DNA of 64,000 nt from Malacoraja senta. Taxonomy: Eukaryota. The notes beneath the pieces are model-generated. The model made no database searches and was not told the origin of the DNA. It saw nothing but the letters and a program-made list of their open reading frames with translations. The stretch is taken from NCBI GenBank assembly GCA_038087875.1, contig CM075994.1, positions 11,286,001 to 11,350,000 of the forward strand. The letters run 5' to 3'. Both the position numbers and the translations under genes were made by a program. Below, piece by piece: positions 20,198 through 57,517 of this stretch. How positions within the stretch are numbered: the first letter of the stretch is position 1; each line of letters opens with the position of its first letter.

Positions 20198-20420
20198 CTC
20201 ACACACACACCCTCCATCACACACACATACCCTCCACCTCACACACACAATCCATCACACGCACACAGACACCCTCCATCACACACACACACACATTCAT
20301 ACATACACACACAGCCACACTCACACACACACAATATCCATCACACACTCACAGGCACACTCAGCCACCCTCCATCTCACACACACTGACTCACACACAT
20401 TCACTCAAACAGACACAAGA
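20198..20420. repeat. Degenerate (CA)n tract inside the Helitron
   Basis: cacacacac runs interspersed with ccctccat; paralogue at ~48820-49040. Confidence 0.85.
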
Positions 20421-20533
20421 TATATACGACAGTAAAATCTCTTGAATCTACTCACGCGGCTGAGCACGACCTCTCCATCGAGCGGGACTTCCGGAATGAG
20501 CGGGACATTTGGATCAACCGGAGGGCAGGGCCA

Positions 20534-22930
20534 ACAAGTCAAGTCAAGTCAAATCAAGTAAAGTCAAGTCAAGTCAAGCACAGTGAGTGCAGTGCCAACA
20601 ATCCATTTCAAGTCAAGTCAAGTCAATCCATTTCAAGTCAAGTCATGTCAATTCATTTCACATCAAGTCCAGTCAAGTCAAGTCAATCCATTTCAAGTCA
20701 AGTAAATCCAAGTCAATCCAAGTCACTCCAAGTCAATCCAAGGCAATCCAAGGCAATCCAAGCCAAGCCAAGTCAAGTCAAGTAAAGCCAAGCACATCGC
20801 AAGCGGGGCCAACAACACAATCCATTTGCCAACAAAGTCAATCCATTTCAAGTCAAGACAATCCATTTCAAGTAAAGTCAAGTCAAGTCAATCCATTTCA
20901 AGTCAAGTCAATCCATTTCAGGTCAAGTCAAGTCAAGTCAAGTCGTCCAGCCATTTCAAATCAAGTCAAGTCAATCCATTTCAAGTCAATCCAAGTCAAT
21001 CCATGACAATCCACGTCAATCAAAGTGAATCCAGTTCACTCCAAGTCACTCCAATTCTCTCCTAGTCACTCCACGTCACTCCAAGTCAATCCAAGTCAAG
21101 TCAATCCAAGTCAATTCAAGTCAAGTCAAGTCAAGTCAATCCAAGTCAATCCAAGTCAATCCAAGGCAATCCGAGTCAATCCAAGTCATCCAAGGCAATT
21201 CAAGTCAAGCCAGGTCAAGTCAGGTAAAGCCAAGCCAAACACAGGGCAGGCGGGGACAACAATAAAATCCATTTGCTTTCATTTCAGGTCAAGCAAAGCA
21301 AAGGCAAAGCAAAAGCAAAAGCAGAGGGCAGGCGGGGCCAGCCAACAATGGAATTCATTTGCTCTCATTTCAGGACAAGCAAATCAAAGGCAAAGCAAAA
21401 GCAAAAGCACAGCGCAGGCGGGGGCAACCAACAATACAATCCATTTGCTATCATTTCAGGTCAAGCAAAGCAAATCGTCAAGTCAAGTTAAGTCAATCGA
21501 TTTAAAGTCAAGTCAAGTCAAGTCAAGTCAGGTCAATCTATTTCAAGTCAAGTCAAGTCAAGTCAAGTCAAGTCAAGTAAATCGATTTCAAGTCATGTCA
21601 AGTCAAGTCAGGTCAATCCATTTCAAGTCAAGTCAAGTCAAGTCAATCCAAGTCAATCCAAGTCAATCCAATTCAAGCCAAGCCAAGTCAAGTAAAGCTA
21701 AGCCAAGCACGGGGCAGGCGGGGCCAACAATACAGTCCATTTGCTTTCATTTAAGGTCAAGCAAAGCAAAGGAAAAAGCACAGGGCAGGCGGGGCCAGTC
21801 AACAATACAATCATTTTGCTTTCATTTACGGTCAAGCAAAGCAAAGGCAAAGCAAACCAAAAGCACAGGGCAGACGGGGCCAGCCAACAATGCAATCAAT
21901 TTGCTTTCATTTCAGGCCAAGCAAAGCAAAGGCAAAAGAGATTAGAGATTAGAGAGATTAGAGATTCCTTTATTTGTCATTCAGACCTTTCGGTCTGAAC
22001 GAAATTTCGTTGCCTGCAGTCATACATATAATAATAAATGACAAAACACACAATAAACACAAATTAACATCCACCACAGTGAGTTCACCAGACACCTCCT
22101 CACTGTGATGGAGGCAAAAGTCTTAAAGTCTCTGTCTCTTCCCGCTTTCTTCTCCCTCTGCGCTGAGGCGATCCAGGCTTCTGATGCTGTGACCCCGCCG
22201 GGCGACGGTAAGCCAGTCCAGCGGCCGAATCCGTGCTCCGCGACGGGCCGGCTCAAACTCCGCGGCCCGGGGTGGTCGAAGCTGCCGAAGCTGCCGCCCT
22301 CCAGTCCAGCGGACGCAGCTGTAGTTGCGGGAGCCCCAGAAAAACAGGTCACCAACCTGTGACCTGCGCGCTCCCGACGATGTCGTCCACTGGGCCCGCG
22401 GCCGAGCCTCCGGATTCAGGTCGCCACCAGTGTCCTCGGTCGCCACCGCCGGAACGCCACCGCAGCCCCGAAGTTGGCCAGCCTCGCGGTGGTAAGTCCT
22501 GGCTCTGCCTCCGGAGCCTCGAGGTCGGTCGGTCGCAGTTGGAGTTGGAGGCCGGCAGCTCCGCCATTTTGGCCTCGGCGCAGACGGAGGCAGAGAAGGG
22601 GAACACGACAAGAAAAAGTCGCATTCCCCCGAAGGAAGAGACAAAAGTCATGTTTCACCCCCCCACCCCACACATACACAACCCAATAAACTAAAATTTA
22701 ACTGAAACAGGACAAAAGAAAACAACAAAAAAAGTAAAAACAGACGGACTGCAGGCGAGCCGCTGCTGTACGACAGCGCCGCCACTTCCGGAATTCCGAA
22801 AAAGCTCAGGGAAGGCGGGGCCAGTCAACAATACAATCCATTTGCTTTCATTTCAGGCCAAGCAAAGCAAAAGCAAAAGCACAGGGCAGGTCAAACAAGT
22901 CATTGCATTTTCATTTCATTTCCATTTCCA
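20534..22930. repeat. Compound (CAAGT)n / (CAAAG)n satellite with a longer ~60-75 bp unit, interrupted at 21938-22795
   Basis: Pentamer runs punctuated by aatccatttc, plus recurring aagcacagggcaggcggggccaacaatacaatccatttgctttcatttcagg. Confidence 0.9.
21938..22795 (-). mobile_element. ~860 bp non-coding retroposon (short Rex1-like derivative or SINE), present only in copy 1
   Basis: Absent from the paralogous array at 49150-50050; CpG-rich body; minus-strand 3' end gaaatttcgtt..hairpin..aatgacaaataaagg followed by a (tctctaa)n tail. Confidence 0.65.
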
Positions 22931-24673: not shown

Positions 24674-24743
24674 ATGAACAAGCCTGCACTCCTGAAGACC
24701 GAGAGTATTTACTATCCTATTCTTGCAATCATTGGAGTCCCAG
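24674..24743 (+). CDS. GPR139/GPR142-like GPCR paralogue 1, exon 1 (MNKPALLKTESIYYPILAIIGVP)
   Basis: ATG, 70 nt, strong donor CAG|GTAGGT, phase 1; joins exon 2 in frame to give TM1 YYPILAIIGVPANLVAILIL; not in the ORF track. Confidence 0.88.
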
Positions 24744-24913: not shown

Positions 24914-27900
24914 ATTTTACTTCGGAGTCACGTGAGTGACTACGTGAAGAAGCCCGTCAGTGCGCCTGCGCGTCATTACGGCAGACGCCTTGACGCAAAC
25001 GGACGTGAGGAGCAGTGCTCCTCGAGTGGTTTGTAGTTTTTCAACTACAAGGTAAGTAAAAACTTTTTTACAGGTTTTCCAGGTCCGTTTACTGTGGGTC
25101 TATGGCGATTTTTTCCACAGACGCCATGGGAAAAAACGGACAGGGGGAAGAGGCGAGCGACATAGCCGACAGAAGTCGGGAAAGTCGGGAGTCCGCGGTT
25201 AGAGACCAACCGCCTCTAAACCCCGGTACAGTCGCCAGCGGTGAGCATAGCGACTGTGGACCTGGGGGCTGGTGAAAACACAGTCAGTGCCTGTCGGGCA
25301 AAAGACAAAGTTTAAATCCCAACGGAGGGTGTCCCAGGCAATGAAGAAGCTCCAGGGCTAGATACTGCTTTAAAGCGTATTGCCCAAATAGAAAGCCTTT
25401 TACACAGGCTGTTGGAGCAACGTTCACTCAGTGAGGAGTGTTCTGAAAGCCAAGCTGCTGGAAACAGCTCAAACAGCTCCTGGTACAGGGCTAGATACTG
25501 CTTTCGAGCGTATTGCCCAAATAGAAGCCTTTTTCATAGGTTGTTGGAGCAAAAGTTCACTCAGGAAGGAGTGTACTGTAATCCAAGCTGCAGGAGCAGC
25601 TTAACAGCACCTGGCTCAGGGCTGATGGAATGCACCCTCAGGAATGAGGAGCGTGCTACGGGTCATGAGATTTCAGACCCCGACTCTGACGGTGAGGCTG
25701 TACAAGGCGATGAAAGGCAGCTGCCAGATGTTCCAACCCTGGTAGTAGGATTCGCTGCCCCGTCAGGGTCAGGAGAGCCATTAGGAAGAACTGGCCTCCT
25801 TAATAAATTACTTGGTTTACCATTAGCTGGAACAGCATGAAATGGATGAGACTGCAAGAGTATCTGGAATCAGTTGCAGAGAATATTAAAGCTGCTGGGT
25901 TCTGAAATAACTGCTTTTACCAGAATAGCAGTTAACAACCAAAAGATGACGAAGTTGCATCAGCAAGCACTGGGGTTGCTATGCAGCACCCACTTCGAGA
26001 AGTGCTATACGGTCTACTATGAATCCGAAATTCGCAGCACTCTGCAAACCAAGTAATATACAAATTTCCCAACTTACTCTTTGGAGAGATCTCGGGAGAC
26101 ATATTAAAGAGTTGGAAGATGAAGCGAAAACAGGATTGATGAAGACATCAATGGTTGTGAAGTCTGTAAAGAGGAAGTATCCTTTCAGACATCATACGGA
26201 TCCTGGACCAAGTCGCTCATCAACGCAGGGACGTAGTTGGCGGCCTGCAGCGGGAGCAAGAACCAGTGGGCGTGCTTCCGGGAGAACCCAGGAATCTCAG
26301 GGTACTGAAATGACTCAAGAGGTAGGTGGACCTGGTTCTCATGGGAACATACTAACTGGATTAAGTCCAAAAGTTGGAGGCAGGTTACATTTCTTCTATA
26401 ATAATTGGAAGAAAATTACTTCAGATGTGGTAATCCTGAATAATATACAAGGATTTCGAATTGAATTCAATCCAAATTATGATTTGCCTGTTCAGCATGT
26501 TCCTAGCCGAACTCTGCACTTTGTACAAAAAGAAGTGATGGAGGTTCAGGTTGCAATTGAAACCCTATATAAAAAAAAGGGGTTATTGAAAAATCAGTCT
26601 ACCAAAGTCACCAATTTGTGTCAAAAATATTCCCTCGATCAAAAAAGGATGGAGGATGTAGGATTCTTGTAGATTTGATAAATCTGAATCCTTTTGTGCA
26701 ATTTAGACATTTTAAAATGGAAACATTTGTGATTGCCAAACAGCTTATTTCAGAAGCATGTTATATGGCAACCATAGACTTGAAAGATGCATATTATTCA
26801 GTGTCTGTTCATTCACAAGATAGGAAGTATCTTAAATTTAATGGATGAACCAGTTGTGGCAGTTCAAAGCTCTGCCTAATGGGTTAATATCTGCACTCAG
26901 AATATTCACAAAAATTGTTAAAACCAATTCTGGGCTTGCTGAGTAGCCAGGGGCATGTACTAATGGCATATTTGGATGATGTCTTGATTATAGGAAAGAC
27001 AAAACAGTCAACAGAAGTATCTGTTGCAGTTGTGAAATCAACTTTTGAAAAGTTGGGGTTTCTAATTCATCCACAGAAATCTAGGTTAACACCATGTACC
27101 TCTATTAATTATTTGGGGTTCACAATTGATTCAGTCCAAATGAATATCACTTTGCCCAGGGAAAAGGGTGGATTTGATTAAAGATTGCAGTAATCTCCTA
27201 AACGAGCAAAAACCTTCAATTAGACAGGTGGCTCGTGTACTGGGAAAATTAGTAGCAGCATTCCCAGCAGTCCAATTTGGACCATTACATTATCAACAGC
27301 TGCAGAGACTTAAAGAACAGGCACCGAGAATGCATGTTGGTCATTTTGATAGAACCATGCAACTAACAACAAATGCTGTTTCTGGTCTGCAGTGGTGGAT
27401 TCTACATGTCTCAAGCAGTTCCAGCAAAGTGCTGATTGAACAACCTTCCATGATATTACAAACTGATGCCAGTGCACCAGGATGGGGTGCAACTGACTTA
27501 ACGTCTAGCTGAGGAGGCAGATGGAATCAGGAAGAGTCATTGTTACTGCAGACATGGGGAATTAACTATTTGGAGCTGCTAGGATGGTTCTATGGGCTCC
27601 AAGCTTATTGTTCTAACACAACTAATAAGCATGTTCAAGTTCAAATTGATAACACAACAGTAGTTGTTTATATTAATGATATGGAATTAAGTCGGTGTCT
27701 TGTGACAAAATGGTTAATCAATTTTGGGCTTGGTGTATTGAAAAGAACATTTGGATTTCAGCTATCTATCTACCAGGTAGAATGAACGATAGCAGACACC
27801 AAGTCACGAAAAGTTCCATGATAATAAAGAATGGATGTTGAATCAAGAGGTATTCAAGGATATAGTCATCAGATTTGGAATGACCGACATCGACTTGAAT

Positions 27901-29707
27901 CATCAGCTATCGAGATATGTCTCATGGAAACCAGATCCAGGAGCAGTGGCGATTGATGCTTTCTCGCTACATTGGGGTGGTATGTTTTCATATATATTTC
28001 CACCTTTCTGCCTCATTAGCCAATGTTTGCTTAAAATCAGGCAAGATGCTGCTTCAAGGGTATTGGTACTACCAGATTGGCCTACACAGCCATGGTATCC
28101 GTTGATATTAGAATTAACAACACAAATGTTGATGAAAGTCCCAAAAAAGAGTAATTTATTGCTGCTCCCTGTACAGGGGAACAACATCCATTATATGATC
28201 GTTTGGATTTGTTGATTTGCAGGTTTTAAGAATGCCTTTTCTGGGACGAGGACTGTCTGAGCATACTGTGGACATGCTTACGGCAGCTTGGAGGAAGAGC
28301 ACTCAAAAACAGTACCTTTCTTATATTAAGAAATGGGAAAAGTTCTGGGTACAAAAGAATGTGCAATAAAGTACTGCAGATATTTCAAATGTTTAGAATT
28401 TCTGTCAAAACTTTATTATGATGAAGGTCTGAGTTGTAGTGTAATTAATTCAGCCAGAAGTGCATTGTCCTCATATTTGGTTCTGGATTCAGAAAGAAAC
28501 TCAATTGGGTCACACCCAATTGTTTTCAGAATAATGAAAGGAATCTTTAATTCCAAACCACCGAAACCTAGGTACGTGACAATCTGGGATGTAAGTGTGG
28601 TACTGAAACTACTTCGTGATGGTTATCAAGTGTGTCTTTACCTTTGGTCAAGCTCAGTATGAAAGTATTCATGTTTATGGCATGAGTGACAGCACAACGA
28701 GTGCAAACACTTGGAAAATTACAAATAGATAGTATGGAAGTAACTGAAGACGAGGTTACATTCTATATCTATGACCTAATAAAGGAAATTAGGCCAGGTG
28801 TGACAGGATTTAAAATTATGCTGGCAGCATATCCAAATGATCCAGGTCTTTGTATTAAGACATATTTATTACAATACATTGAGGTCACAAAGAATTTGAG
28901 AATACGGAAACTGGGTTTTTGATCACACACAAGAAACCACACAAGAGAGTTTCAATACAGACTATTTCCAGATGGATAAAAGAAGTCTTAACAACTGCTG
29001 GTATTAACACTTATGTTTTTACGTCTCACTCGGCTAGGGCAGCAGAAATGTCGGCGGCCAGGGCAAAAGACGGCCCCGTCGACCATATCCTCGCAGCCGC
29101 CGGGTGGTCCAATGAGTTGATGTTTCAACATTTTTACCATCGGCCTATAGTTAATGCGGGGTTGTTTGCAGAAACTATTTTAAGTTCTGTGTAAATTCCT
29201 CTGGTTTAAAGGGGATCTGATTCATTTCATTCTTGAAATGAATTACTGCATTTGTGGTACAAATGTTATTATGAATGCATGATTGATTATTCTCGTTCCG
29301 AGTCAATCTATGCAGTGAGAAGCCGGGATTGATCCACGGCATGAAATCACAAAGCTTTAAAATCTTCACGTAGTCACTCACGTGACTCCGAAGTAAAATA
29401 GTAAGATTAAACGAGAACTTACCTAAGTTTGAAGTTTGATCTTTATTTTATGAGGAGTTACGTAGGTGATTACGTGCCCGCCACGACCCTACCCTCTATC
29501 ATAAAGGTCAGATGGAAGTTCTTGTATTACTCGTTTTAGTATGAGACTATATTACTTCGGTTCTTGTTTTTGTGATTTCACACCGCTGCTTTGAAGATTG
29601 ACGCGCAGGCGCACTGACGGGCTTCTTCACGTAATCACCTACGTAACTCCTCATAAAATAAAGATCAAACTTCAAACTTAGGTAAGTTCTCGTTTAATCT
29701 TACTATT
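24914..29707 (+). mobile_element. DIRS1-type tyrosine-recombinase retrotransposon A, coding regions disabled, inside the GPCR intron
   Basis: Inverted terminal repeats (24941-24975 vs ~29600-29634); internal complementary region 29363-29476; gag-like, RT (IDLKDAYY, YLDD), RNase H (QTDAS, INYLEL, IDNTT), methyltransferase-like (DAFSLHW..YIFPPF) and YR (AQRVQTL, HSARAA, AGWS..FY) remnants; empty site at ~52205. Confidence 0.95.
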
Positions 29708-30551: not shown

Positions 30552-32194
30552 TGTTGCTTTTAGACTGTTTTGCCAGATTTAATCGCTAACATTTTTGTTC
30601 TTATCGCCGAGAGGTGATTAAAGTGTTGAGGATCCATCTGCAAACTGCGATGAGTTGTGTAGCGGAGATTATGGCATGCTCCAGGTTTAGTAGTTTGGGT
30701 CGAGACTACGCCTAATCACTTCCAAGAGCACGCTCTCTCTTTACTCATGATGTTGCTTATCACCAAAAGTGTATTAGATGCGGTACCTCGACATTATTGA
30801 GCTGAGATGTCGTATGTTCGCATTTAACCCATCAGACCTACAGCAGTCACAGCTCGAGAAATTGCATCGTGTTGCTTTTTTAAATGGTTACATATTTGCA
30901 AGTGTTCGAGATTATCAAACCGGAATTAAACCTCTTCCTAGAGCCCTTCAACACGTATTGTCACACGGCCAATAGGGTTATTCCGGGGATGCGCACGCAG
31001 ACCTCTAGCGGATGGGTCTTACATTTATGTTTCCCAATGAATCCGTCTTGCAGGATAGACAACGATCCCACGCATTTAGTGGTTTGCAAACTGCAATTTT
31101 TTAGCAGGAGAATGCTAACCTGTCAGTCAGTAGAGCGGGTCGGGATGTACATGTGTTGAAAGCCGATCATGACGGTTGGAGCTGTGAACTTATCGACAGG
31201 TTGTGCCTCTGCCGTTGAGTTGTGTTGTCTGTTTTTTGTTGGCTCTGGAGAAACTGTCTACCATCTGTGATTGACTGAATTTCAAAACGTCAAGACACCA
31301 CCGAGGGGAGCTGGCGGACTGATGCCGGCCTTTCTGTCGTTCACCTCTGTATCGGAAGCACACGTGTGTTTAGAATTGGAACTACGTATAGTGGGTATGA
31401 GCACAATTTGTGTCCGCAACCAATTTAATGCTGTGACGGCAGATAACAAAAGGTAGCGTGACAAAATTATTTGAATATGGTCCTGGTCGACGTGGCGGTA
31501 GTAATTAAAGCAAGCGATTGCCCTTCCATTTCTCAGTAAGTTTGAATTCTTTGGCAGGTGCTTCAGAAGTTTAAATTTAATCGGTGGTTTTATTGCTGAA
31601 GTTTTTCATTATTTGCTGTGTTCCAATATATTCTATAATCTATTCCAATAATTTCTAGCTTGCCTTGAGCCATGTGGAGATATTTCACAAATAAAGCTGG
31701 CGATAATTGTTGAGTATCAAAGGTTGTCTGGCTTTTCGAAAATCCTTACCTCGGTCCATGATATGTGTGCGAATTAAGGTGTGAATCGTATCCGCCGCAC
31801 AGCTTCTGTAGCGGATATCAGACGTCAGCCTGCTTGGTCCGCCCTATCGGAAAATAATGTGTGTACTTGGACTCCAAGGGGAGAGAAATGGACAACAGAC
31901 TGCCATAAAATGGTAAATATTGTCCTATGCTAATTTATTACAGTAGAAGAACAAACTTAGAAATGTGAGAAGTGTGTCTGCATAGGGGGGCAACAATTTA
32001 CATGCTGCTGTGAGATCTAAACGTCACATTTGCAGATAAGCTACGAAAATTACATCTGTGTGATTATCAGTGGGGAGGCGCGAGTGCAACGGTTTCCATG
32101 AGATAACATGAATGCCAAACACGTGACAATTAAAAGGTAACATGAGTTCCAAACACGTGAAAATAAAATCTGAAAATCTGAAACAAGGCTAGCC

Positions 32195-32960
32195 GACAAC
32201 ACTGCTACTGATCGGAGCTGTGTGCTTAGTCCATGCTCTACTCCAAATACACCCATGTGTGTTTGACCACGTACAACAGTAACTCGTCTTTATGTATGCC
32301 GATGATGCCACTGCTGACGGGCACTTCGACAAGAATGATGAGACGAAGTAAAGGAAGGAAATCCGGTACATATTGTCAATGAGTCAGGACACTATCTAGA
32401 CGTTAATATCTGGACGACACAGTTGCGTGTGAACCAAAGGAAGCGGAGAGGACAAACACGGCCCCATCTCATCTCTAAATGTGATCAACATTTCGTGTTA
32501 TGTGGCATCAATATCAACAGAACCATAGCTCGTCCCTTCACGGAGATGCGATAACAACAAAGCGCATCAGTGTGTTCACTTTATTAGAAGTCTCAGAATC
32601 TTCGACATGTCCTCGAGGATTTTTTGCAAACCAGATGCGCTGTACAAAGAATTTCGCTGTACAAAGAATTTCGACGGAGTGGTTATCAGGCAGGAACGGC
32701 CACTTCACAGTCCGTAACCGCCTGATGATGCAGAGGGCGGAGAAACACTGAATTATCTATCACAGAATAGCCGTTTTCTTCTACCCAGTCCAACGCGAAT
32801 GCAAGATGGCTGCCGCCCAGACCATTCTGTTAACCTTCTGGAACGTCCATATTTAAAGGAAGATTCTGCTCCACTGCTATCAATCTCCTTAACCAATCAT
32901 GAATTTCACACCACTTTCAGCGAGGCAGCGTCAGATACCGTTACTCTTAACACACCGTCA
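32195..32960 (+). mobile_element. Ancient Rex1/Babar-like RT fragment in the GPCR intron
   Basis: Decayed SCVLSP..YSKYTHVC..YNSNS..YADDAT motif; paralogue at ~54630-55155. Confidence 0.6.
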
Positions 32961-33443
32961 TTCTTTTATCTCGTTATTGTTACTTAGTGATTTTTTTTTG
33001 CAATTCCTCAAACTGAATTTGCAGTCGGTGTTACATTTTCTATTGCTTTTACCATTACCGTACGCCATTATCTCTATGAGCAACATGATGTCATTGCCTC
33101 CAGGTTTATTTGACAACAACGCAATGTGAACCTGGGGTATTTCGACTATATTTATTAAGAAACTTTATATTTTGCAAGGAGCAGTAAACACGAGGGCTTT
33201 TCAATTTGAAGTATTTTTTACCATAGGAATGTCTCGCTCGATGACCAAATATTTTTATTTTAGTGGAGCATCAGACCTGCTGAATTGAAAGGGGTCCAAC
33301 CGTAAACCTGTGCAATATAGTTTGTTATTCCAAAGTCTTAAAGGCAAGAAAAACTCGTACACGCATGACAAATTGAAGCAAATTAATATATATTTCGCGG
33401 GTTATTTCTCGTTCGTAATTCAATTTTCTTCTTTTGGTTGCAG

Positions 33444-34390
33444 CAAATTTGGTGGCAATCCTTATCCTGTCGTCTGGAAAGTGCGGGCTCACTAGATGTG
33501 TCATCCAGTATCTGAAATCAATGGCGGTAGCTGATCTAATGGTACTGGTTTCCGATGTAATTCTCTATGAGATTAAAGAGGCATATTTTCCGCATTCATT
33601 CCTCAATTACACCCCCATTTGCAGTTTTATTTTTGTACTGATTTATATTTCGCTCGATTGTTCCGTCTGGCTGACTGTCACTTTTACATTCGATCGATTT
33701 GTTGTTATATGTTGCCAGTCGTTGCGTTCAAAATATTGTACCATGAAGACTGCATTGAAGGTAATAACAGTGGTGTTTATGTTAAGTATTTTACAAAATA
33801 TTCCAGTCTACTTTATGTTTGAACCTCGTGAAGTAATTAATGATGTACCATGGTCCTGTTATGTAAACTCAAGTTTCTACACATCACCCACCTGGGTCGC
33901 GCTTTTATGGGTTGAAACACTCTTAACCCCATTTACGCCATTTGTGTTGATTCTTCTGCTTAATACCTTGACCATAAAGCATATTATCATGGCCAACAGA
34001 GTCAGGAGCAAGCTCCGAGGGAGTAATAGAGAGGCGTGTCAGACTGATCAAGAGACTGAGAACAGAAGGAAATCGATCATTTTACTCGTTGCAATATCAG
34101 GCAACTTTATTTTCTTATGGATGGTAAACCTTGTGTGCTTCATCTGTGTACAGTTGACAGATTCTCAATTTTTGGAAACAGATTACATCGACTCGTTCAC
34201 CATTGCGGAAAAAAGTGGCTTTATGCTGAGGTATTTGAGTACTTGCACAAACACTTTCATTTATGCAGTTTCTCAGAGACACTTCAGAGAGGAACTGAAG
34301 AATGTAATTTCACGTCCCTTTCTTGCCATTGCTAATATATTCAAACTTTTGAACACAAAACTAAATTTATCCAAATATGTAATCAAGTGA
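33444..34390 (+). CDS. GPR139/GPR142-like GPCR paralogue 1, exon 2 (spliced product 338 aa)
   Basis: Acceptor ttttcttcttttggttgcag; seven-TM pattern; YLKSMAVADL, SVWLTVTFTFDRFVVIC, NIP, PFVLILLLN, FIFLW, NTFIY..FREEL resemble the GPR139/142 group. Confidence 0.9.
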
Positions 34391-44870: not shown

Positions 44871-45764
44871 TTACTTCAATAATTTAGAAAGTAAAACAAG
44901 AGGCCGTTTAATAATTTACTTCATTTCATCTCTGCCGTTTCGTTGAGACGCAGCATAAATGAATGTGTTTGGACAACGGCTTAAAACTCTTAACTGGAAT
45001 CCAGTTTCTTCTGCAACGGCGAATGGGTCTCTGTAATCAGATTTCATCAGTTGATTATCGGTAAAATGTAGAGCAACAAAGCAAGCAAAATTTACCGTCC
45101 ACAATAGAAGGAAACTACCAGATATCGCGAGTAGTAAAATGAGCGATTCTCAATTTCTTGATCCATCCGGTACTTCTCAATTTCGTTTCCCCGTAGTTTG
45201 TTTCTGATTCTGTTCGCCCGTATAATATGACTTATTGTTAAGGCGTCGAACAGGAAGATCCACACAAATGGTAGAAATGGTGTGAAGACGGTCTCTAACT
45301 ATAAGAATGCAGCCCAGATAGGTAAATTATAGAAGCTTGATTTTGCAGTGCAGTACCAGGGCACATTGTCAATTACTTCACGTGGTTCAAGTAAGAAGAA
45401 AACCGGCATATTTTCAACAATGCATAATAAACAAACGATCGTTATAACCGTTGTTGAATTTTTTTCAGTGCAGTACTTAGTTTTTAACGACTGACAACAA
45501 ATAGAGACAAATCGATCAAAGGTAAACGACACAGTCAACCAAACGGAACAATCAATAACAATATAAATCAAGGTCATATTGAGACGGCAGATTCGAGTGT
45601 AATCTAGGATTGAACGTGGAAAAACGCATCATTAATCTAAAAAAGTATTGGACCAAATATCAGATGCGATAGGTTAGCTGCCGCCATCCATACTAGATAT
45701 CGGGTGTTGCATATGGAGAGCCCACACTTTCCGGTGGACAGGATGGAGATTGTCAATATATTAG
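44871..45764 (-). pseudogene. GPR139/GPR142-like GPCR pseudogene, exon 2 only
   Basis: Acceptor ttctttgcag|CT AAT; ANILTISILSTGKCGL, DCSVWLTVSFTFDRFVSICCQSL, EPREVIDNVPWYC, NTFIYAASQR; stops at 45637, 45299 and 44916, a frameshift near 45620 and a deletion near 45145; no exon 1 found. Confidence 0.9.
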
Positions 45765-46254
45765 CTGCAAAGAATAAAGGGAATTGCATTAAAACGTATC
45801 TTGGTACCATGGTCAGCCGGATCTTCCAAGGAGATTGAGATCTTCGTAGCATGATGTGAATGCAACAGCCTCTTCCCTCGTGTCTGAAAGACGAAAGAGC
45901 TAGGAATTGGACTTAAGAAGAGGTGGAGTGCATGAATCAATCTGCATCAATAGTGCTGAGTTAGAAACTAGGTAGACAGGCAGATGTGTGAGAAGAGAGC
46001 ACGGGAATGAGAATCACATGAAATTGCAAAAGTCATCATTCGGTCCACTATCTCACAAGGTATCACTTGAAAAACCATAATTCAATCCGATGCAGAAATA
46101 CTAAAACATTGACGATTTGTTAACGATGGTACAAAATTAACGATTCACATGTGTGCGAGTGCATTGGATCGCAGTAATTACAAACGGAACATTCGAGTAT
46201 TTATAAATTGTAATTATAAATTCAACTGAACATTCAAGGGTAGACGTCTTATCG

Positions 46255-47947
46255 AAGACAGACCGGTGCACAGAGTGGGTGTGGTAGCTCTGTTGGTGAG
46301 AAATGTAATTCAGTTCCTTGCGAGGGGTGACATAGATTCAGGAGATGTGTCAGTATGGATAGATCTGAGTAATTGTAAGGGTAAAACGACCCTAATGGGA
46401 GTTAACAACAGGCCCCCAAACAGTAGCCTGGATATAGGGTGCAAGTTGAATCAAGAGTTAAAATTGGCATGTCATAAGGATAATGCTACGGTTGTTATTT
46501 GAGATTTCAACATGAGGTAGACTGGGAAAATCAGGTTGGTACTGGACCCCAAGAAAGAGAGTTTGAGGAGTGCCTCCGTGATGATTTATTAGAGCAGCTT
46601 GTATTGGAGCCTACCAGGGAGAAGGCAATCTTCGATTTAGTGTTGTGTAATGAACCGGGTTTGATAAGGGAACTCGAGGTAATGGAGACATTACGAGGAA
46701 GTGAGGAAAATATGATAAGTTTTGATCTACAATTTGAGAGGGAGAAGGGTAAATCGGAGGTGTCAGTATTATAGTTGAACAAATGGGACTATGGTGCCAT
46801 TAGGGAGGAGCTGGCCAAAGTTGACTGGAAAGATACCCTAGTAGGGATGGGAGTGGACCAAAAATGATAGGTATTTCTGGGAATAATACAGAAGGTGTAC
46901 AGAAGGTTCATTCCAAAGAGGAAGACAGATTCTAAGGGGAGTAAAGGGGGCCGTGGCTGACAAGTGAAGTCAGGGACCGTATAAAAATAAAAGAGAAACA
47001 TTATAACATAGCATAGATGAGCGGGAAGCCAGAGAATTGGGAAACTTTTAAAGAGCAACAGAATATAACTAAAAAGGCAATACGGGAAGAAAATATGAGG
47101 TATGCGGATAAGCTAGCTACGAATATAAAGGAGGATAGTAAAAACTTCCTTAGGTATGTGAAGAGGAAAAAAATAGTTAAGACCAAATTTGGAGAATTGA
47201 AGACTGAAAATGGTGAATTTATTATGGGGAACAAGGAAATGGTAGACGAGTTAAACAGGTACTATGGAACTGCCTTCACTAAGGAGGACACAAACAATCC
47301 CCCTGGTGTACTAGTGGCCATAGGATCTAGGGTGATGGAGGATCCCCAGGGCGTGATGGTCTGCATCCCAGGGTACTCAAACAGGTGGCGCTGGAAATCG
47401 TGGATACATTGGTAATAATTTTCCAATGTTCTATAGACTCAGGATCAGTTCACGTGGATTAGAGTGTAGCTAATGTTATCCCACTTTAAAAAAAAAAGCG
47501 GGAAAGAGAAAACATGAAATTATAGACCAGTTAGCCTGACATCGGTGGTGCGGAAGATACTGGAGTCAATTGCAAAAGATCAAATAGCGGCACCCTTGGA
47601 TAGCAGTAGCAGGATCGGTCCGAGTCAGCATGGATTTATGAAGGGGAAATCATAGTTGACTAAATGTATGGAATTTTTTGAGGATGTAACTTGGAAAATG
47701 GACAAGAGAAAGCCAGTGGATGTAGTGTACTTGGACTTTCAGAAAGCATTTGATAAGGTCCCTCATAGGAGATTAGAGGACAAAATTAGGGCACATGGTA
47801 TTGGGGTAAGGAACTGACATGGATAGAAAATTGGTTGGCAGACAGGAAACAAAGAGTAGCGATTAACGGGTCCCTTTGAGAATGACAGGCAGTGACTAGT
47901 GGGGTACCGCAAGGGTCTGTGCTGGGACCGCAGCTATTTACAATAAA
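46255..47947 (+). mobile_element. CR1 LINE 5' segment (duplicate of 17555-19312)
   Basis: Near-identical sequence and the same Helitron interruption point. Confidence 0.9.
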
Positions 47948-50538
47948 CTAGACTGTGGGATCCTTTGGGTCCCAGGTACACACGGGGGCCTGGTCCCCAA
48001 ACGCAATATTCCACCTCTCCACCAATTCCAATATTGGTTGCCATTTGGGGAGGGAGGTCTTTCTGGCGCGCTAGCATGAGTGTTGTGGGCCGAAGGGACT
48101 GATTTCCAGAGGGCTAGTATGGACATTGTGGGCCGAATGGATTCCTGGGCTGGAAGTTCAGTCACTCAGTCACTCAGGTCTGGCAGTTCAGTCACTCAGG
48201 CCTGGCAGTTCAGTCACTCAGGCCTGGCGGGCTGGCAACTCAGGCCTGGTGGGCTGGCAGCTCATTCACACAGAGCTGGTGGGCTGGCAGCTCACACAGG
48301 GCTGGTGGGCTGGCAGCTCAGAAACTGCCAGAAATTCTGCTCAAAACAGGTGAGAGACTCTGTGAGAGAGAAGAGGGAGAGGGTGGAGAATCAACTTTAG
48401 ACATTTTTCATCAGATCACAGCAATGAAGGAGGAAAGTCTGACCTGGAGTGGATCTCACTGTGAGCCAATGATGCGAGGGAGAAACATACTGGGGTGAGG
48501 TTTAATACTTACAGGGGGAATACTTACTGATGGGCCGAAGGAACTCCTTCTGGGCTAGTACAGGCATGATGTGCCGAATGTACTCTTTAAATAAATCATT
48601 GTGAAATCTCTCTTGAATTTTCCCGGCCTGGCACATGCCATTTGGGCCAAAATACTCCTCCTGGGCTAATACGGTCATTTTCGGCAAAAGGGACTAGTTT
48701 CTGGGCTAATAGGGGCATTGTGGACCGAAATGAGTGGTTTTAGGTTGGCCAAAGGTGGGCAGTCATGTGAGCCACTCACTCGTGGCTGGTGGGCTGGCAA
48801 TTGACTCACGGCTGGCGGGCTCACACACACACCCTCCATCACACACACCTACCCTCCACCTCACACACACAATCCATCACACACACACAGACACCCCCCA
48901 TCACACACACACTCATTCATACATACACACACAGCCACACACACTCACACAATATCCATCACACACTCACAGGCACACTCAGCCACCCTCCATCTCACAC
49001 ACACTGACTCACACACACTCACTCAAACAGACACAACATATATACGACAGTAAAATCTCTTGGATCTTGTCACGCGGCTGAGCGCGGCCTGTCCATCGAG
49101 CGGGACTTCCGAATGAGCGGGACATTTGGATCAACCGGAGTGCAGGGCCAACAAGTCAAGTCAAGTCAAATCAAGTAAAGTCAAGTCAAGTCAAGCACAG
49201 TGAGTGCAGTGCCAACAATCCATTTCAAGTCAAGTCAAGTCAATCCATTTCAAGTCAAGTCAAGTCAATTCATTTCACATCAAGTCCAGTCAAGTCAAGT
49301 CAATCCATTTCAAGTCAAGTCAATTCAAGTCAATCCAAGTCACTCCAAGTCAATCCAAGGCAATCCAAGGCAATCCAAGCCAAGCCAAGTCAAGTCAAGT
49401 AAAGCCAAGCACAGCGCAAGCGGGGCCAACAATACAATCCATTTGCCAACAAAGTCAATCCATTTCAAGTCAAGACAATCCATTTCAAGACAAGTCAAGT
49501 CAAGTCAATCCATTTCAAGTCAAGTCAACTCAATCCATTTCAGGTCAAATCAAGTCAAGTCGTCCAGCCATTTCAAATCAAGTCAAGTCAATCCATTTCA
49601 AGTCAATCCAAGTCAATCCATGACAATCCACGTCAATCCAAGTCAATCCAAGTCGCTCCAAGTCACTCCAATTCTCTCCTAGTCACTCCACGTCACTCCA
49701 AGCCAATCCAAGTCAAGTCAATCCAAGTCAATCCAAGTCAAGTCAAATAAAGTCAAGTCAAGTCAATCCAAGTTAATCCAATCCAATTCAATCCAAGTCA
49801 ATCCAAGTCAATCCAAGTCAATCCAAGTCATCCAAGGCAATTCAAGCCAAGCCAAGTCAAGTCAAGTAAGGCCAAGCCAAACACAGCTCAGGCGGGGACA
49901 ACAATACAATCCATTTGCTTTCATTTCAGGTCAAGCAAAGCAAAGACAAAGCAAAATCAAAAGCACATGGCAGGCGGGGCCAGACAACAATGCAATCAAT
50001 TTGCTTTCATTTCAGGCCAAGCAAAGCAAAGGCAAAGCAAAAGCAAAAGCACAGGGCAGGTCAAACAAGTCATTGCATTTTCATTTCATTTCCATTTCCA
50101 TTGCAGTTTCAAGCACAGGGCAGGCCAAACAACTCATTGCATTTTCACTTTGGGCTAACAAATTATTTATTGCCAATACATTGCAGACTCTCAGTTCAGT
50201 TGAATCACAGCTTAGAATCAGAGTTGGGGACTCTCCCTCACAATTTTCCAGAGTGAGCGACTCACGTCCGGAATCCGGGGCTAAATACTCCCGCCCCCCG
50301 GAAGGGGCGTTGCTTTCACCATGGTGAAAGGACCAATCAGCTAATCTCACGATTTTTTAAACATTCATATTTTTTTATTTTTCAGCGAGCGGAAAAAATC
50401 CTTGGGGCTGCTGCAGCGGAGGAGGACTGTTAGTAAGATGGCAAAAATCATAGCGATATAGTGTACCGTTTTTTCTAAAAATCAATTAACTACTTAGAGA
50501 GGAAATGGTCAAGATGAGACTTTTAGTATAATGACAGA
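47948..50538 (-). mobile_element. Non-autonomous Helitron, duplicate copy with a shorter satellite
   Basis: A|CTAG at 47948, same hairpin, GA|T at 50537-50539; CAAGT array ~49150-50100. Confidence 0.85.
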
Positions 50539-51480
50539 TATTATTAATTCAGATGAATGGATTACAGGTAACATTAGCAAATTTGCACATGACACAAAGC
50601 TGGGTGGCAGTGTGAACTGTGAGGACGATGCTATGAGAATGCAGGGTGACTTGGACAGGTTGGTTGAGTGGGCAGATGGCATGGCAGATGCAGTTTAATT
50701 TGGATAAATAAATTATCCTTCTTTGGTAGCAAAATAGGAAGGCAGATTATTCTCTAAATGTTGTCAAATTGTGAAAACTGGAAGTACAACGGGATCCGGG
50801 GGTCCTTGTTCATCAGTCAATGAAAGTAAGCACGCAGGTGCAGCAGGCAGTGAAGAATGCGAATGGCATGTTGGCCTTCATACAAGAGGAGTCGAGTATA
50901 GGAGCAGATAGGTCCTTCTGCAGTTGTACAGGCCCCTAGTGAGATCACACCTGAGTATTGTGTGAAGTTTTGATCTCCAAATTTGAGGAACGACATTCTT
51001 GCTATTGAGAGAGTGTAGCGTAGGTTCACAGGATTAATTCCCGGGGTGGTGGGACTGTCATATGCTAAGAGAATGGAACGGCTGGGCTTGTATATTCTGG
51101 AATTTAGAAGGGTGAGAGGGGATCTTATTGAAACATATAAGATTATTAAGGGTTTGGACACGCTAGAGGCAGGAAACATATTCCCGATGTTGGGGGACTC
51201 CAGAACCAGGGGGCACTGTTTAAGAATAAGGGGTAAGCAGTTTAGAACGGAGATAAGGAAACAATTATTTCACACAGAGAGTTGTGAGTCTGTGGAAGCC
51301 GATTTTCTGGATACTTTCAACAGAGAGCTAGATAGGGTTCTTAAAGATAGCGGAGTTAGGGGATATGGGGAGAAGGCAGGAACGGGGTACTGATTGTGGA
51401 TGATCAGCCATGATCACATTAAATGGCGTTGCTGGCTCAAAGGGTCGAATGGCCTACTCATGCACCTATTGTCTATTGCC
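50539..51480 (+). mobile_element. CR1 LINE 3' segment (duplicate of 23434-24192)
   Basis: Near-identical sequence, without the internal deletion seen in copy 1. Confidence 0.9.
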
Positions 51481-51960
51481 TAAACAGCCACTTTTTTGTT
51501 ATGTGTTGTGCAATATTTCTGTCACATCTTCAGACTCATTCATAGTCTCGGTAAATTTGATTGTTCGCATAATCATAGATATCTCCTCAGATTTTAATTG
51601 CACATGATACTTGTAAAACATAAGAGAGGGTGCATATTGCAATTTGTTGGTGCAGCTAATGGAGAAAATTCAAAAGAAACCGCATTAAAGCGTTTACAAA
51701 AATATTTAAGCTGATAACCGATGTTTGATGTATTGACGATTTCAACAGCAGAAACATGTCTCTACAGACTACCATTTTAACAGTGATGAAGGGCATGAAA
51801 CAAACAACCTAATTAACGTGATCGTGATTGAATAATACCAATCTCATAGCGTGTTGATTCCACCCTTGAGGTTTCTGTAAAGTATAAGTACGAGCTAACT
51901 TTGAAATCGGGAGATCCGTTAGCCTATTGAACTGACTAGAAAGGCATCTTCCAACTAAAT

Positions 51961-52030
51961 ATGAACAGGCATGCACTCCTGAAGACCGAGAGTATTTACT
52001 ATCCTATTCTTGCAATCATTGGAGTCCCAG
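51961..52030 (+). CDS. GPR139/GPR142-like GPCR paralogue 2, exon 1 (MNRHALLKTESIYYPILAIIGVP)
   Basis: ATG, 70 nt, donor CAG|GTAGGT, phase 1. Confidence 0.88.
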
Positions 52031-55000
52031 GTAGGTGAGCCAGAGAATGGTTTTACAGATGTACGTTGATGTGCTTGACAGACGATATTGAACATCATGG
52101 CAAACATATCTGAAAACATTACAGATTTCTATGAAATTATTATTGCAAACAAAGTGCTGTCAAAAACAAAGTATCGTGCTGATCTCACTTGTGTACTGGA
52201 TCTAAAAATCATGTGGAAAAATGATTGAATTTCTCTGACGGTAAAATTATATATAAACGTTTTATAAGTAATATAATATTCTATATATTTTATATTAGTC
52301 AAGCCCACTGGACACAACAAGCCCTCCTTCTCCACCTCATACACAGTCCACCTGAACAATGGCCGATTCAACGCTTCCAAAGAGGGGTCTGCATATAAAC
52401 GCGATGTTTCAAGCTCTTTCTATTTTCATTCCATGCAGTTGATTTTGCATAGCTTCATTATACGAAGAACAAGTAAACGTACGGCGGCTTGCTGCTGAGC
52501 ATTATCGATCATAACTGATTTTAACTTTAGACTTCGCGGTCGAAATTAAAAAAACAAGGGTTTGATGGATGCTGTTCTCTGTCTTCTGTAACTCTCGCTA
52601 AAGAATGTCAGTCATGTGTGCGAGTCCGTGCGCATGCTATGATCGCAGGTGCCTCATCTGCCTGATAACTTACCGCGAAATAAAACATGCAAGTCGAGGG
52701 ATGCTGTCGGTGAGTTTCCATAAAACATACGTCTTTTTATTTCCATTGTAAGCGCTCAGCTAAATTAGCTCGTGGTTTACTGAGGCTGAGCAACGTGGTT
52801 TCTTTCAAAGCATTGTAACATTTAAATACAAGTTGCACAAAGTGAAACTGTCTAATGGTCCTGATTTGACCTAGATTTGACATCAGGAAAAAGAAAATTC
52901 GCCGTTGCATTTCAGGAAGATTAAATTTTTACATTCAGCAGACATTCAGAAGAAAGGTAAAACACTTGTTGCTTTTAGACACAAAATGCTGGAGTAACTC
53001 AGCGGGACAGGCAGCATTTCTGGAGAAAAGGAATGGGTGACGTTTTGGGTCACCTGTTGCTTTTAGACTGTTTTGCCAGATTTAATCGCTAACATTTTTG
53101 TTCTTATCGCCGAGAGGTGATTAAAGTGTTGAGGATCCATCTGCAAACTGCGATGGGTTGTGTAGCGGAGATTAGGGCATTCTCCATGTTTAGTAGTTTG
53201 GGTCGAGACTACGCCTAATCACTTCCAAGTGCACGCTCTCTCTTTACTCATGATGTTGCTGATCACCAAAAGTGTATTAGATGCGGTTCCTCGACATTAT
53301 TGAGCTGGGATGTCGTATGTTCGCATTTAACCCATCAGACCTACAGCACTCACAGCTCGAGAAATTGCATCGTGTTGCTTCTTTACATGGTTACATATTT
53401 GCATGTGTTCGAGATTATCAAACCGGAATTCAACCTCTCCCTAGAGCCCTTCAACACGTGTTGTCAGACGGCCAACAGGGTTATTCCGGGGATGCGCACG
53501 CAGACCTCTTGCGCATGGGTCTTACATTTATGTTTCCCAATGAATCCGTCTTGCAGGATAGACAACGATCCCACGCATTTAGTGGTTTGCAAACTGCACA
53601 TTTTTAGCAGGAAAATGCTAACCTGTCAGTCAGTACAGCGGGTCGGGATGCACATGTTTTGAAAGCCGATCATGACGGTTGGAGCTGTGAACTTATCGAC
53701 AGGTTGTGCCTCTGCCGTTGAGTTGTGTTGTCCGGTTTTTGTTGGCTCTGGAGCAACGGTCTGCCATCTGTGATTCACTGAATTTCAAAGCGTCAAGACA
53801 CCACCGAGGGGAGCTGGCGGACTGATGCCGGCCTTTCTGTCGTTCACCACCTATCGGAAGCACACGTTTGTTTAGAATTGGAACTGCGTATAGTGAGTAT
53901 GAGCACAATTTGTGTCCGCAACCAATTTAATGCCGTAATGGCAGATAACAAAAGGTAGCGTGACAAAATTATTTGAATATGGTCCTGGTCGACGTGGCGG
54001 TAGTAATTAAAGCAACTGACTACCCTTCCATTTCTCAGTAAGTTTGAATTATTTAGCAGATGCTTCAGATGTTTAAATTAAATCGGTTGTTTTAATGCTG
54101 AAGTGTTTCATTATTTAGTGTGTTAAATCTATTCCAATATTTTCTAGCTTGCCTTGAGCCATTGGAGATATTTCTCAAATAAAACTGGCGATAAATGTTA
54201 AGTATCAAAGGTTATCTGGCTTTTCGAAAGTCTGGACCTCGGTCCATGATATGTGTGCCGAGTTAATGTGTGAATCGCATCCGCCGCACAGCCTATGTAG
54301 CGGATATCAGACGTCAGCCTGCTTGGTCAGTCATATCGGAAATTAATGTGTGTACGTGGACTCTAAGGGGAGAGAAATGGACAGCAGGTTGCCATGAAAA
54401 TGTTAACGATTGCCCCCTGCTAATTTATTACAGTAGAGGAACAGAATGAGGAATGTGAGAAGTGTGTATGCAGAGGGGGCAACAATGTACATGCTGCTGT
54501 GAGCTCTAAATGGCACATTTGCAGATAAGCTGCGAAAATTAAATTGTGTGATTATCAGTGGGGAGGCGCGGTTTCCACGAGATAAACTAAGGTAACATGA
54601 GTGCCAAACACATGACAAATAAAATCTGAAATTAATAAGCATCTCTAAACATCCTTGGTCGACGGGTATCCAGCTGCAAATGGGCTTTGGACTTCAGGCC
54701 AGGCAGGCTCCTATCACGTGGAATTGGTTTTACCGTCTCCACAAGGATAGCCCACAATACTGCTACTGCTCGGAGCTGTGTGCTCAGTCCATGCTCTACT
54801 CCAAATACACCAATGTGTGTTTGACCGCGTACAACGGTAACTCTGTGTTTAAGTATGCCGATGATGCCACTGTTGACGGGCACTTCGACAAGAATGATGA
54901 GACGAAATAGAGGAAGGAAATCCGGTACATAGTGTCATTAAGTCAGGACACTATCTAGCCGTTAACATCTCGGCGACACAGTTGCGTGTGAACTAAAGGA

Positions 55001-55316
55001 AGCGGAGAGGACAAACACCGCCCCATCTCATCTCTATATGTGATCAACATTTCGTGTTATGTGGCATTAATATCACCAACACAATAGCTGGTCCCTTCAC
55101 GGAGATGCGATAACAACAAAGCGCAACAGTGTGTTCACTTTATGAGAAGTCTGAGAATTAAAAGGGGTCCAACCGTAAACCTGTGTAATATAGTTTGTTA
55201 TTCCAAAGTGTTATAGGCAAGAGAAACTCCTACACGCATGACAAATTGAAGCAAATGAATATATATTTCGCGGGTTATTGCTCGTTCGTAATTCAATTTT
55301 CTTCTTTTGGTTGCAG

Positions 55317-56263
55317 CAAATTTGGTGGCAATCCTTATCCTGTCGTCTGGAAAGTGCGGCCTCACTAGATGTGTCATCCAGTATCTGAAATCAATGGCGG
55401 TAGCTGATCTAATGGCACTGGTTTCCAATGTAATACTCTATGAGATTAAAGAGGCATATTTTCCGCATTCATTTCTCAATTACACGCCTATTTGCAGTTT
55501 TGTTATTACACTGAATTATATTTCGCTCGATTGTTCCGTCTGGCTGACTGTCACTTTTACATTCGATCGATTTGTTGCTATATGTTGCCAGTCGTTGCGT
55601 TCAAAATATTGTACCATGAAGACGGCATTGAAAGTAATAACAGCGGTGTTTATGTTGAGTATTTTAGAAAATATTCCAATCTACTTTATATTTGAACCAC
55701 GCGAAGTAATTAATGATGTACCATGGTCCTGTTATGTAAAATCAAGTTTCTACACAGTACCCACCTGGGTCGCGTATTTATGGTTTGAAACACTCTTAAC
55801 CCCATTTGCGCCATTTGTGTTGATTCTTCTGCTTAATACCTTGACCATAAAGCATATTATCATGGCCAACAGAGTCAGGAGCAAGCTCCGAGGGAGTAAT
55901 AGAGAGGCGTGTCAGACTGATCAAGAGACTGAGAACAGAAAGAAATCGATCATTTTACTCGTTGCAATATCTGGCAACTTTATTTTCTTATGGATGGTAA
56001 ACCTTGTGTTCTTCATCTGTGTACAGTTTACAGATTTTCAATTTATGGAAACAGATCACATCGACTCGTTCACCATTGCGGAAAGAAGTGGCTTTATGCT
56101 GAGGTGTTTGAGTACTTGCACAAACACTTTCATTTATGCAGTTTCTCAGAGACACTTCAGAGAGGAACTGAAGAATGTAATTTCACGTCCCTTTCTTGCC
56201 ATTGCTAATATATTCAAACGTTTGAACACAAAACTAACTTTATCCAAATATGTGATCAAGTGA
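55317..56263 (+). CDS. GPR139/GPR142-like GPCR paralogue 2, exon 2 (spliced product 338 aa)
   Basis: Same acceptor, intact frame, about 26 amino acid differences from paralogue 1 in this exon. Confidence 0.9.
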
Positions 56264-57517
56264 TAATTTGCGAGGCACACATATATATCTGTAACATGTA
56301 ATAGGATTTGTCGTGGTACGCCTTTCCACAATTTCTTGGGATAGTATATTTGTTGACATTTACTCATCCCATTTATGACGACAACTTAGTTTGAAGTCCA
56401 TTGTCTATCATCAGAAACAGAAAATCGTTCAAGTCAGTATAATATGGTTTATTATAAACCGGGCGGAATTAAAGACAGACGGAATTTAAAAATAACGTTT
56501 TGTGGCCTGACGGACGCCAAGGGTAACTGAAAATGTAAATGATGTTCCTTCCCACTGAGCTGATGGAAGCTTTTAACAACGATATCATCCAACCTTAAAC
56601 ACAGTTCCTCTTCTTTTTGCATTTCAATTCTGCACGTGCCTCTTATAATTTCATATAACTGTATCAGGTCGTCCCGGTTTTCCCATTTCTCGGCATCCCT
56701 TGCCGCAATGCATTTGCCTTCTTTACCCCCAAATATTTGCTTTCGCAAAATTCCTCACTTCTGACGTCTCGGGATAAAATTCACGTGCAATGTTCCGTCA
56801 AGGTTTCTATCTGTTCGATATTCAGCTGCAGGCTCAGTTAATTTTCCTCGCGGTCCACAACATCCATGTTTTTCCTGTCATCCTCAAACTCACTAATGAT
56901 ATCTCCAACATACGCACCGAATTAGCAATTTTATGAAAAAAAGCAAAGATCCATCACCGATCTAAAGTCCACCGGTGGCCGCATATTTTCTAATGAGATA
57001 ATAAATCTTCCACCACCACCCCGGGGCCTTATCACAAAAATGACAACATTGCATTGATCTCCCTGTGAATTAGACTGCTGGCCTGTTCTACATTGTGAGA
57101 TCTTGACAAATGCCTGAATAAAATCCATTTAGGCATTGTTCACTGCCTTCATCCATATTATTAAATGCCGCAATATTTGTGAAGTGTTCCCACGTACAAT
57201 TACATGCTGACTATACACGATGAGACATTGCTTCAGATTTAACGCTCCTTGGACCATAAGACTTTCAGACATTGGAGCACAATTAAGTTATTCGACCCGT
57301 CGACTCTGCCAGTCGATCATGGCGAATTTTCTTTCCTTCTCAACCGCATTCTCCTTCATTCTCTCGGTAGCTTTGGACGTCCTTACTGATCAAGGGCATT
57401 TGTATCAGTTATCGGTTTATAAAGTACCATATGTTCTGACCTCTACAGCCATTTGTGGCAAAGACTTTCAAATATGCACCGCGTTCTGGCTAAACAATCT
57501 CCTCTTTTGACCACTAT

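Follow-up and report, generated by a model that had tools for sequence, protein, structure and literature searches.

The window analysed here, a stretch of 64,000 nucleotides from a cartilaginous fish, contains two intact receptor genes on the forward strand and a broken third copy on the reverse strand. The intact genes, denoted copy A and copy B, each consist of two exons that encode a 338-residue class A (7tm_1) receptor. The first exon of copy A (24674–24743, forward strand) is 70 nucleotides long, carries the start codon, a short N-terminus, and the first half of TM1, and ends in a phase-1 GT donor. Its second exon (33444–34390, forward strand) runs from the middle of TM1 to the stop codon with the frame intact. 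Copy B has a first exon of 70 nucleotides (51961–52030, forward strand) and a second exon (55317–56263, forward strand) whose frame is also intact; this paralogue, with which copy A is compared throughout, is 95.7% identical to A. The first exons were placed by tblastn of relatives together with sequence and family alignment. Between them, two amino acids of the extracellular N-terminus are changed, and there is no synonymous difference.

The two genes lie in a head-to-tail duplication of ~29 kb recovered by self-BLAST. Together with the divergence profile, this search pairs a block with copy A (17104–37114, forward strand) with a block with copy B (45806–63999, forward strand) that reaches the end of the window. 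The two copies stem from a recent tandem duplication of a class A GPCR gene with two exons. It is very improbable that they are instead divergent haplotypes of one locus misassembled in tandem, in which case their differences would be allelic and possibly under balancing selection, because the pooled substitution divergence of the blocks is 3.8% (394 of 10,447 bases), 56 indels separate them, and each block carries a different retrotransposon insertion of 5 kb.

Copy C (44919–45764, reverse strand) is represented by exon 2 only, and no first exon for it was found within the 64-kb window. It is interrupted by two frameshifts and by stops, shares about 68% nucleotide identity with A and B, and is an older member of the family. 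A relative, P0053, is 84–91% identical and unbroken. The block of copy B starts about 40 bases upstream of the copy C splice acceptor, and the duplication junction may have separated copy C, a pseudogene, from its own first exon.

Several other elements occupy the window. Two insertions, at ~24915–29706 and ~57521–62602, are retrotransposons with terminal repeats and a reverse transcriptase; they are about 68% alike, and the latter also has a tyrosine-recombinase-like open reading frame; both are taken here to be DIRS-like. Each is found in one duplicated block only, and one of them sits inside intron 1 of copy A. A 686-base segment of the same intron (~32595–33281) is missing from copy B. Long open ORF1 (356 residues) and ORF2 (1266 residues) frames are found at 3848–9515, and another ORF2, partial and 936 residues long, at 11452–14262; these elements are presumably LINE-1-like. 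Both blocks also hold a degenerate short-period satellite of differing length (~20200–21950 and ~48800–50100).

Receptor Class

The assignment to class A is secure, with 7tm_1 scores of 65.7 and 68.7 bits against a Pfam cut-off of 30.5. An AlphaFold model (pLDDT 86.7) has the seven-helix fold with helix 8 and reaches TM-scores of 0.6–0.75 to peptide receptors. The model was built on 107 sequences, whose alignment comprised 105 of the best 120 matches after 15 over-long gene models of 395–543 residues were excluded. Residues D2.50, C3.25, and W6.48 and the DRF motif are present, while P6.50 and the proline of NPxxY are replaced. The cysteine pair joining TM3 and ECL2 is invariant in the family, and ECL2 forms strands in the model.

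When the family profile was compared with solved structures, the human orphan receptor GPR139 (7vug, 9m42) came first of 36 (E=9e-18), the next match having E=1e-12, and motifs in TM1, TM2, TM3, and TM7 align in common with it. Matches in the ESM Atlas were 7tm_1 clusters only, and of the top three clusters two bear the name GPR139. In the fold search GPR139 stood outside the top 50 and no subfamily was singled out. Judged by sequence comparison, the gene is a predicted member of the GPR139/GPR142-related branch in the broad sense.

Orthology with GPR139 was rejected, since in phmmer GPR139 reaches E=5e-5 and ranks 10–11 of 26, below several peptide receptors. The agonist-binding residues of GPR139 described in excerpts of PMC8807744 are not conserved: the equivalents, mapped by hand, of E3.32, F3.33, R6.51, H5x43, and N7x38 are here I/N, Y, N, E, and F, respectively. 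The A/B family invariably has cysteine at 3.25 and in ECL2, whereas the aligned residues of GPR139 are not cysteines. GPR139 is also described as highly conserved across vertebrates in part of a review (PMC12208981), unlike the A/B family, which is multi-copy and includes pseudogenes. The initial annotation had proposed GPR139 as the basis for modelling; it is the right structural template without being the orthologue. L-Trp, L-Phe, and alpha-MSH elicit responses from GPR139, whose signalling goes mainly through Gq/11 (excerpts of PMC8807744).

Membership in the OR, TAAR, V1R/ORA, V2R, or T2R families was also rejected, as 7tm_1 alone passes its Pfam cut-off, with no 7tm_4, and none of the 111 named matches among the best 120 bears the name of a chemoreceptor family. 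In its mode of evolution, the A/B family resembles the ORs and V1Rs, which are birth-and-death families; MRGPRs and formyl-peptide receptors (FPRs) are further examples. It is also like the tertiary-amine receptors TAAR5–9, for which excerpts of PMC4786312 describe frequent tandem duplication, pseudogenes, an excess of change and positive selection near the pocket, and conserved low-copy relatives. It differs from TAAR5–9 in that no sequence kinship was found between them and in that its pocket is not hypervariable. With many lineage-specific tandem copies and pseudogenes, the family has the appearance of a birth-and-death receptor repertoire.

A further, putative kinship is with the MIP/sex-peptide and FMRFamide-type receptors of protostomes. 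These are reported to have a common origin with GPR139/142, and no homologue of the MIP peptide system is said to have been described in vertebrates (both from excerpts of PMC8514136). The automatic names of some relatives read “sex peptide receptor-like” or “FMRFamide receptor-like”.

Differences between the Two Copies

Exon 2 of A and B differs at 41 of 945 nucleotides; 26 of the affected codons alter the amino acid and 12 are synonymous. The initial annotation had arrived at about 26 and a dozen by eye, and had placed most of the changes in the predicted ligand-facing half of the receptor. Both claims hold. With helices numbered from the motifs D2.50, C3.25, R3.50, P5.50, W6.48, and N7.49, whose helix limits match the AlphaFold model, changed codons number 20 of 132 in the outer half and 6 of 182 in the inner half (Fisher P=2.6e-4), and the synonymous changes are divided six and six (P=0.57). 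The outer bias persists when the boundaries are shifted by up to three residues (P≤1.2e-3 in all seven settings), and 8 of 314 circular shifts attain 20 outer changes. The intracellular loops, said beforehand to be almost invariant, have no change at all in the 27 residues of ICL1–3.

The outer changes fall into four groups, all on the forward strand. Outer TM2 (33542–33556) has 2.53 V/A and 2.57 D/N, and outer TM3 (33629–33643) has 3.28 I/V, 3.29 F/I, 3.30 V/T, and 3.32 I/N. The stretch from outer TM4 through ECL2 to outer TM5 (33794–33913) carries Q/E, V/I, M/I, N/K, S/V, L/Y, and V/F. Outer TM6, ECL3, and outer TM7 (34136–34234) carry C/F, L/F, S/F, L/M, Y/H, K/R, and Y/C, with no synonymous change among them. 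Every substitution named beforehand is thus present, and the earlier list was incomplete only on the inner side, where it left out six changes (3.53, 4.48, 5.49, 6.31, and two in the C-tail). Negative BLOSUM62 scores apply to 7 of the 20 outer changes and to 1 of the 6 inner ones. The pocket of copy A has an acidic group on TM2 (D2.57, Q4.56), that of copy B on TM4 (N2.57, E4.56). Three codons with two changes do exist, as had been pointed out, but three adjacent pairs are no more than expected by chance (P=0.25), and double-hit codons were dropped as a signal of selection.

Divergence of the Flanks and Possible Gene Conversion

Non-coding divergence between the blocks is 2.8% upstream, 5.7% in intron 1, and 3.5% downstream. 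In 300-base windows it ranges from 1% to 11% and is heterogeneous (chi-square P=1e-12), a patchiness that points to a mosaic history of the duplicated block. Because non-coding divergence is this uneven, the neutral rate is uncertain. Within intron 1, divergence peaks at 7–11% where 31490–32555 is aligned with 53992–55114, about 1–2 kb upstream of exon 2; the peak may reflect the edge of an earlier conversion event, or else selection on the sequence. Around exon 1 and in the kilobase upstream of it, windows of A and B differ by 0.7–2.3%. With a difference of only 1–2% immediately ahead of exon 1, A and B are probably expressed in the same cells.

The initial annotation had offered gene conversion from other paralogues as an alternative to diversifying ligand specificity. 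Such conversion, or unequal crossing-over, would involve close paralogues that are not seen here, which either patched tracts into the outer half or homogenised the rest, so that the differences predate the duplication. The swing of non-coding divergence from 1–2% near exon 1 to 7–11% at 31.5–32.5 kb agrees with exchange of this kind, and synonymous changes do flank the TM3 and TM4 groups. The exon itself offers no direct support. No significant cluster of differences marks a tract in exon 2 (scan P=0.17; fixed windows P=0.05–0.20), and synonymous changes there are not nearer to amino-acid changes than random (P=0.37). The TM5 and TM6–TM7 groups together comprise 11 amino-acid changes and no synonymous one. 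Of the 41 differing sites, copy C shares 16 with A, 15 with B, and 10 with neither of them, without a long run, and it was rejected as a donor. Exon dS is about 5%, within the range of the flanks. The proposed comparison with flanking divergence gives a divided answer, with no tract in the exon and patchy flanks around it. Conversion as the source of the exon differences is improbable, and even then the placement of tracts on the ligand side would still require selection.

Selection on the Two Halves of the Receptor

Across the whole exon, dN/dS between A and B is 0.72–0.97, depending on kappa. This is near neutral, and the ratio of 26 to 12 was accordingly rejected as evidence of selection. 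The average arises because two regimes are combined, a constrained inner half and a faster outer half. Inner-half dN/dS is 0.26–0.39, with P<0.01 against each of four neutral baselines, and the inner, G-protein-facing half is under purifying selection. A uniform neutral pattern, which the initial annotation had set against its own proposal, does not describe the exon. Neutral decay of both copies, in which a whole-exon ratio near 1 would reflect early pseudogenisation, conflicts with this constraint on the inner half. It also conflicts with the intact frames, as neither a stop nor a frameshift is present although 4.2 frameshifts would be expected (P=0.014) at the rate of the aligned non-coding DNA (46 frame-shifting indels in 11,015 bases), and with the 23 invariant columns of the family, none of which differs between A and B. 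Decay is scarcely credible and largely refuted.

Outer-half dN/dS is 1.2–2.0, significantly greater than 1 in three of eight tests and compatible with 1 in the other five. Relative to the exon’s own synonymous rate it is 1.3–1.5 and not significant (P=0.14–0.27), and the direct contrast of N:S between the outer and inner halves gives P=0.13. The outer half as a whole is not reliably above 1. These values are compatible with the main rival to selection on ligand specificity, a relaxation of constraint confined to the outer half. Under relaxation, the ligand side of a redundant, multi-copy family drifts near-neutrally while folding and G-protein coupling are kept, and any excess in the pocket is a fluctuation.

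The pocket positions argue against relaxation. Two lists of 40 and 26 positions, which we assumed from general knowledge of class A receptors, were placed by motif numbering, with the TM4 register uncertain by one. Changed positions number 10 of 40 and 8 of 26, and pocket dN/dS is 1.9–4.0 (1.9–3.2 for the 40-position list). Of 16 tests against four neutral baselines, all one-sided and uncorrected, 15 give P<0.05. Compared with other outer positions, the excess in the pocket is weak (P=0.035, 0.098, and 0.14). An independent set was formed from 17 ligand-contact or mutagenesis residues of GPR139 given in excerpts of PMC8807744, hand-mapped through the profile alignment with two ECL2 positions unreliable. 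Five of these 17 equivalents are changed, which is significant against the rest of the receptor (P=0.008) and not against other outer positions (P=0.14).

The proposal that ligand specificity is diversifying is thus carried by the pocket, which exceeds neutral expectation in nearly all tests, and not by the outer half as a whole. It is supported but unproven and, on balance, the likelier reading, with the case consisting of one pair and 41 changes in a pattern that was spotted before testing.

Related Pairs and Clusters in Sharks and Rays

Among the best 120 of 1692 protein matches, 111 are species-named, and all of these come from sharks or rays, most being annotated “probable G-protein coupled receptor 139”. 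In the tree, rays supply the closest named relatives. The family tree contains species-specific subtrees, and a hand count of clusters at 90% identity among the same best 120 of 1692 matches gives 28, 24, 16, and 15 for four species. By this evidence, the family branch is strongly multiplied in sharks and rays.

The outer/inner ratio of the A/B pair, 5.1, is the highest of 33 sister pairs in the 107-sequence tree. The pair exceeds expectation from the site rates of 31 other pairs both in the outer half (20/24, P=0.003) and in the pocket (10/24, P=4e-4). A tilt towards the outer half is also found elsewhere in the family. Among same-species pairs with differences the ratio is above 1 in 12 of 14 (P=0.013), one further pair being identical. 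Young clusters of four other species have 160 outer and 89 inner changes, with a ratio above 1 in 9 of 10 clusters and a nominal P=4e-6 for clusters that are not fully independent. The ten multi-member clusters were hand-picked, and 50 of their 51 members were used after one from another species was removed. Median ratios of same-species and named between-species sister pairs are 1.27 and 1.05 (P=0.10, 13 named pairs), and P becomes 0.04 when four further pairs are added; the contrast is only suggestive.

What the young clusters have in common with A and B does not extend to the pocket. Changes per site in the clusters are 0.105 in the pocket, 0.128 at other outer positions, and 0.067 in the inner half. 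A family-wide hypervariable pocket in the style of odorant receptors was sought and not found, the 40-position mean rate of 0.147 being about at or below that of the average site. The pocket focus is specific to the A/B pair and is not family-wide.

These comparisons bear in both directions on relaxed constraint of the outer half. A pocket no more variable than other outer sites in the other young clusters is what relaxation would give, and the pseudogene state of copy C fits with it. Certain young-cluster members carry damaging-looking changes, such as the loss of C3.25, so that relaxation may account for some of the signal in the family. Against it, the A/B pair lies above what the young clusters themselves predict, both in the pocket (10/24, P=0.004) and in the outer half (20/24, P=0.036). 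Relaxation as the explanation of the A/B differences is somewhat unlikely.

A second pair from one species, P0100 and P0118 of the horn shark, differs at 57 of 129 outer and 14 of 134 inner positions and at 17 of 40 pocket positions. It is a second candidate for diversification on the ligand side.

Relatives in Bony Vertebrates

The nearest relatives outside cartilaginous fishes are the GPR139-like receptors P0252, P0259, P0270, P0290, and P0322 of coelacanth, salamanders, bichirs, and teleosts (profile E from 2e-60 to 6e-28). They have two cysteines in common with the A/B family and yet are just 23–31% identical to A. Two of them, compared with human GPR139, gave E=2e-18 and 9e-17 and are equally distant from it; the branch is annotated GPR139 although these two are distant from the human receptor. 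No amniote was found among ten looked-up proteins of the branch. Subtypes GPR210A/B in coelacanth and fishes are placed under GPR139/142 in part of PMC6504862, and the bony-vertebrate relatives are possibly these receptors.

In six of seven bony-vertebrate pairs the outer/inner ratio is 0.32–1.0, the seventh having two changes against none. Three salamander pairs, which have sequences in common, show zero or one change at the 40 pocket positions. The outer half and the pocket are conserved between these species, unlike in the young copies of sharks and rays. With ratios at or below 1 in all but one of these pairs, the outer excess is not generic to this branch of receptors.

Interpretation and Significance

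The best explanation of the A/B differences, held to be somewhat likelier true than false, is that both copies had their ligand preference altered by episodic positive selection, with the signalling output left unchanged. After the duplication, positive selection would have re-tuned the pocket of A and of B alike; the acidic group that lies on different helices in the two copies would be one example. A change in both copies is proposed because their terminal branches are equal (0.052 and 0.050, in an unrooted tree without GPR139/GPR142). The two receptors would then favour different ligands and yet signal into one and the same pathway inside the cell. More weakly, the ligands may be short peptides or aromatic amino-acid-like molecules, with signalling perhaps through Gq/11; the idea of peptide or amino-acid-like ligands is drawn from the kinship with GPR139 and the MIP/FMRFamide receptors, the disulfide, and the beta-hairpin ECL2.

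The family concerned appears to be uncharacterised. Literature searches on GPR139 with sharks or cartilaginous fishes, and broader ones, with subscription papers mostly outside their reach, found no description of the expansion, and neither GPR139 nor GPR210 was found in the 40 listed of 2,198 matches of one of the GPR139 searches. In the main texts of a catshark sensory-organ paper (PMC11979771) and of a GPR139 review (PMC12208981), the family and the expansion, respectively, are not mentioned, and the family is not named in the main text of the Squalomix tandem-cluster preprint (10.1101/2025.06.08.657570).

Pocket-directed divergence of duplicated GPCRs is already well known, and what matters is the family in which it is found here. 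A wider and less likely proposal is that the “probable GPR139” genes of sharks and rays are a large receptor repertoire with rapid turnover, so far unrecognised and directed at external or non-self ligands, with a chemosensory or innate-sensing role. In mammals, MRGPRs and formyl-peptide receptors have an innate-sensing role. If the proposal is true, the A/B pair would be a snapshot of a new specificity arising.

Cartilaginous fishes are called GPCR-poor and without MAS1-related receptors in excerpts of PMC8455134, and part of PMC6368271 describes them as having few olfactory receptors, with 5–8 genes each of OR, TAAR, and ORA in catshark. Their genomes nonetheless hold GPR139-related receptors by the dozen, and it is on the ligand side that the young copies of these vary. 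At least 15–28 distinct members per species were found among the nearest matches, which exceeds the catshark OR, TAAR, and ORA counts in that portion of PMC6368271. The pair described here, 92% identical and with ten pocket differences, is a natural experiment for the ligands of the GPR139/142 branch. Should these receptors prove to be expressed in the nose, skin, or leukocytes, the chemosensory or immune repertoire of sharks and rays would have to be seen differently.
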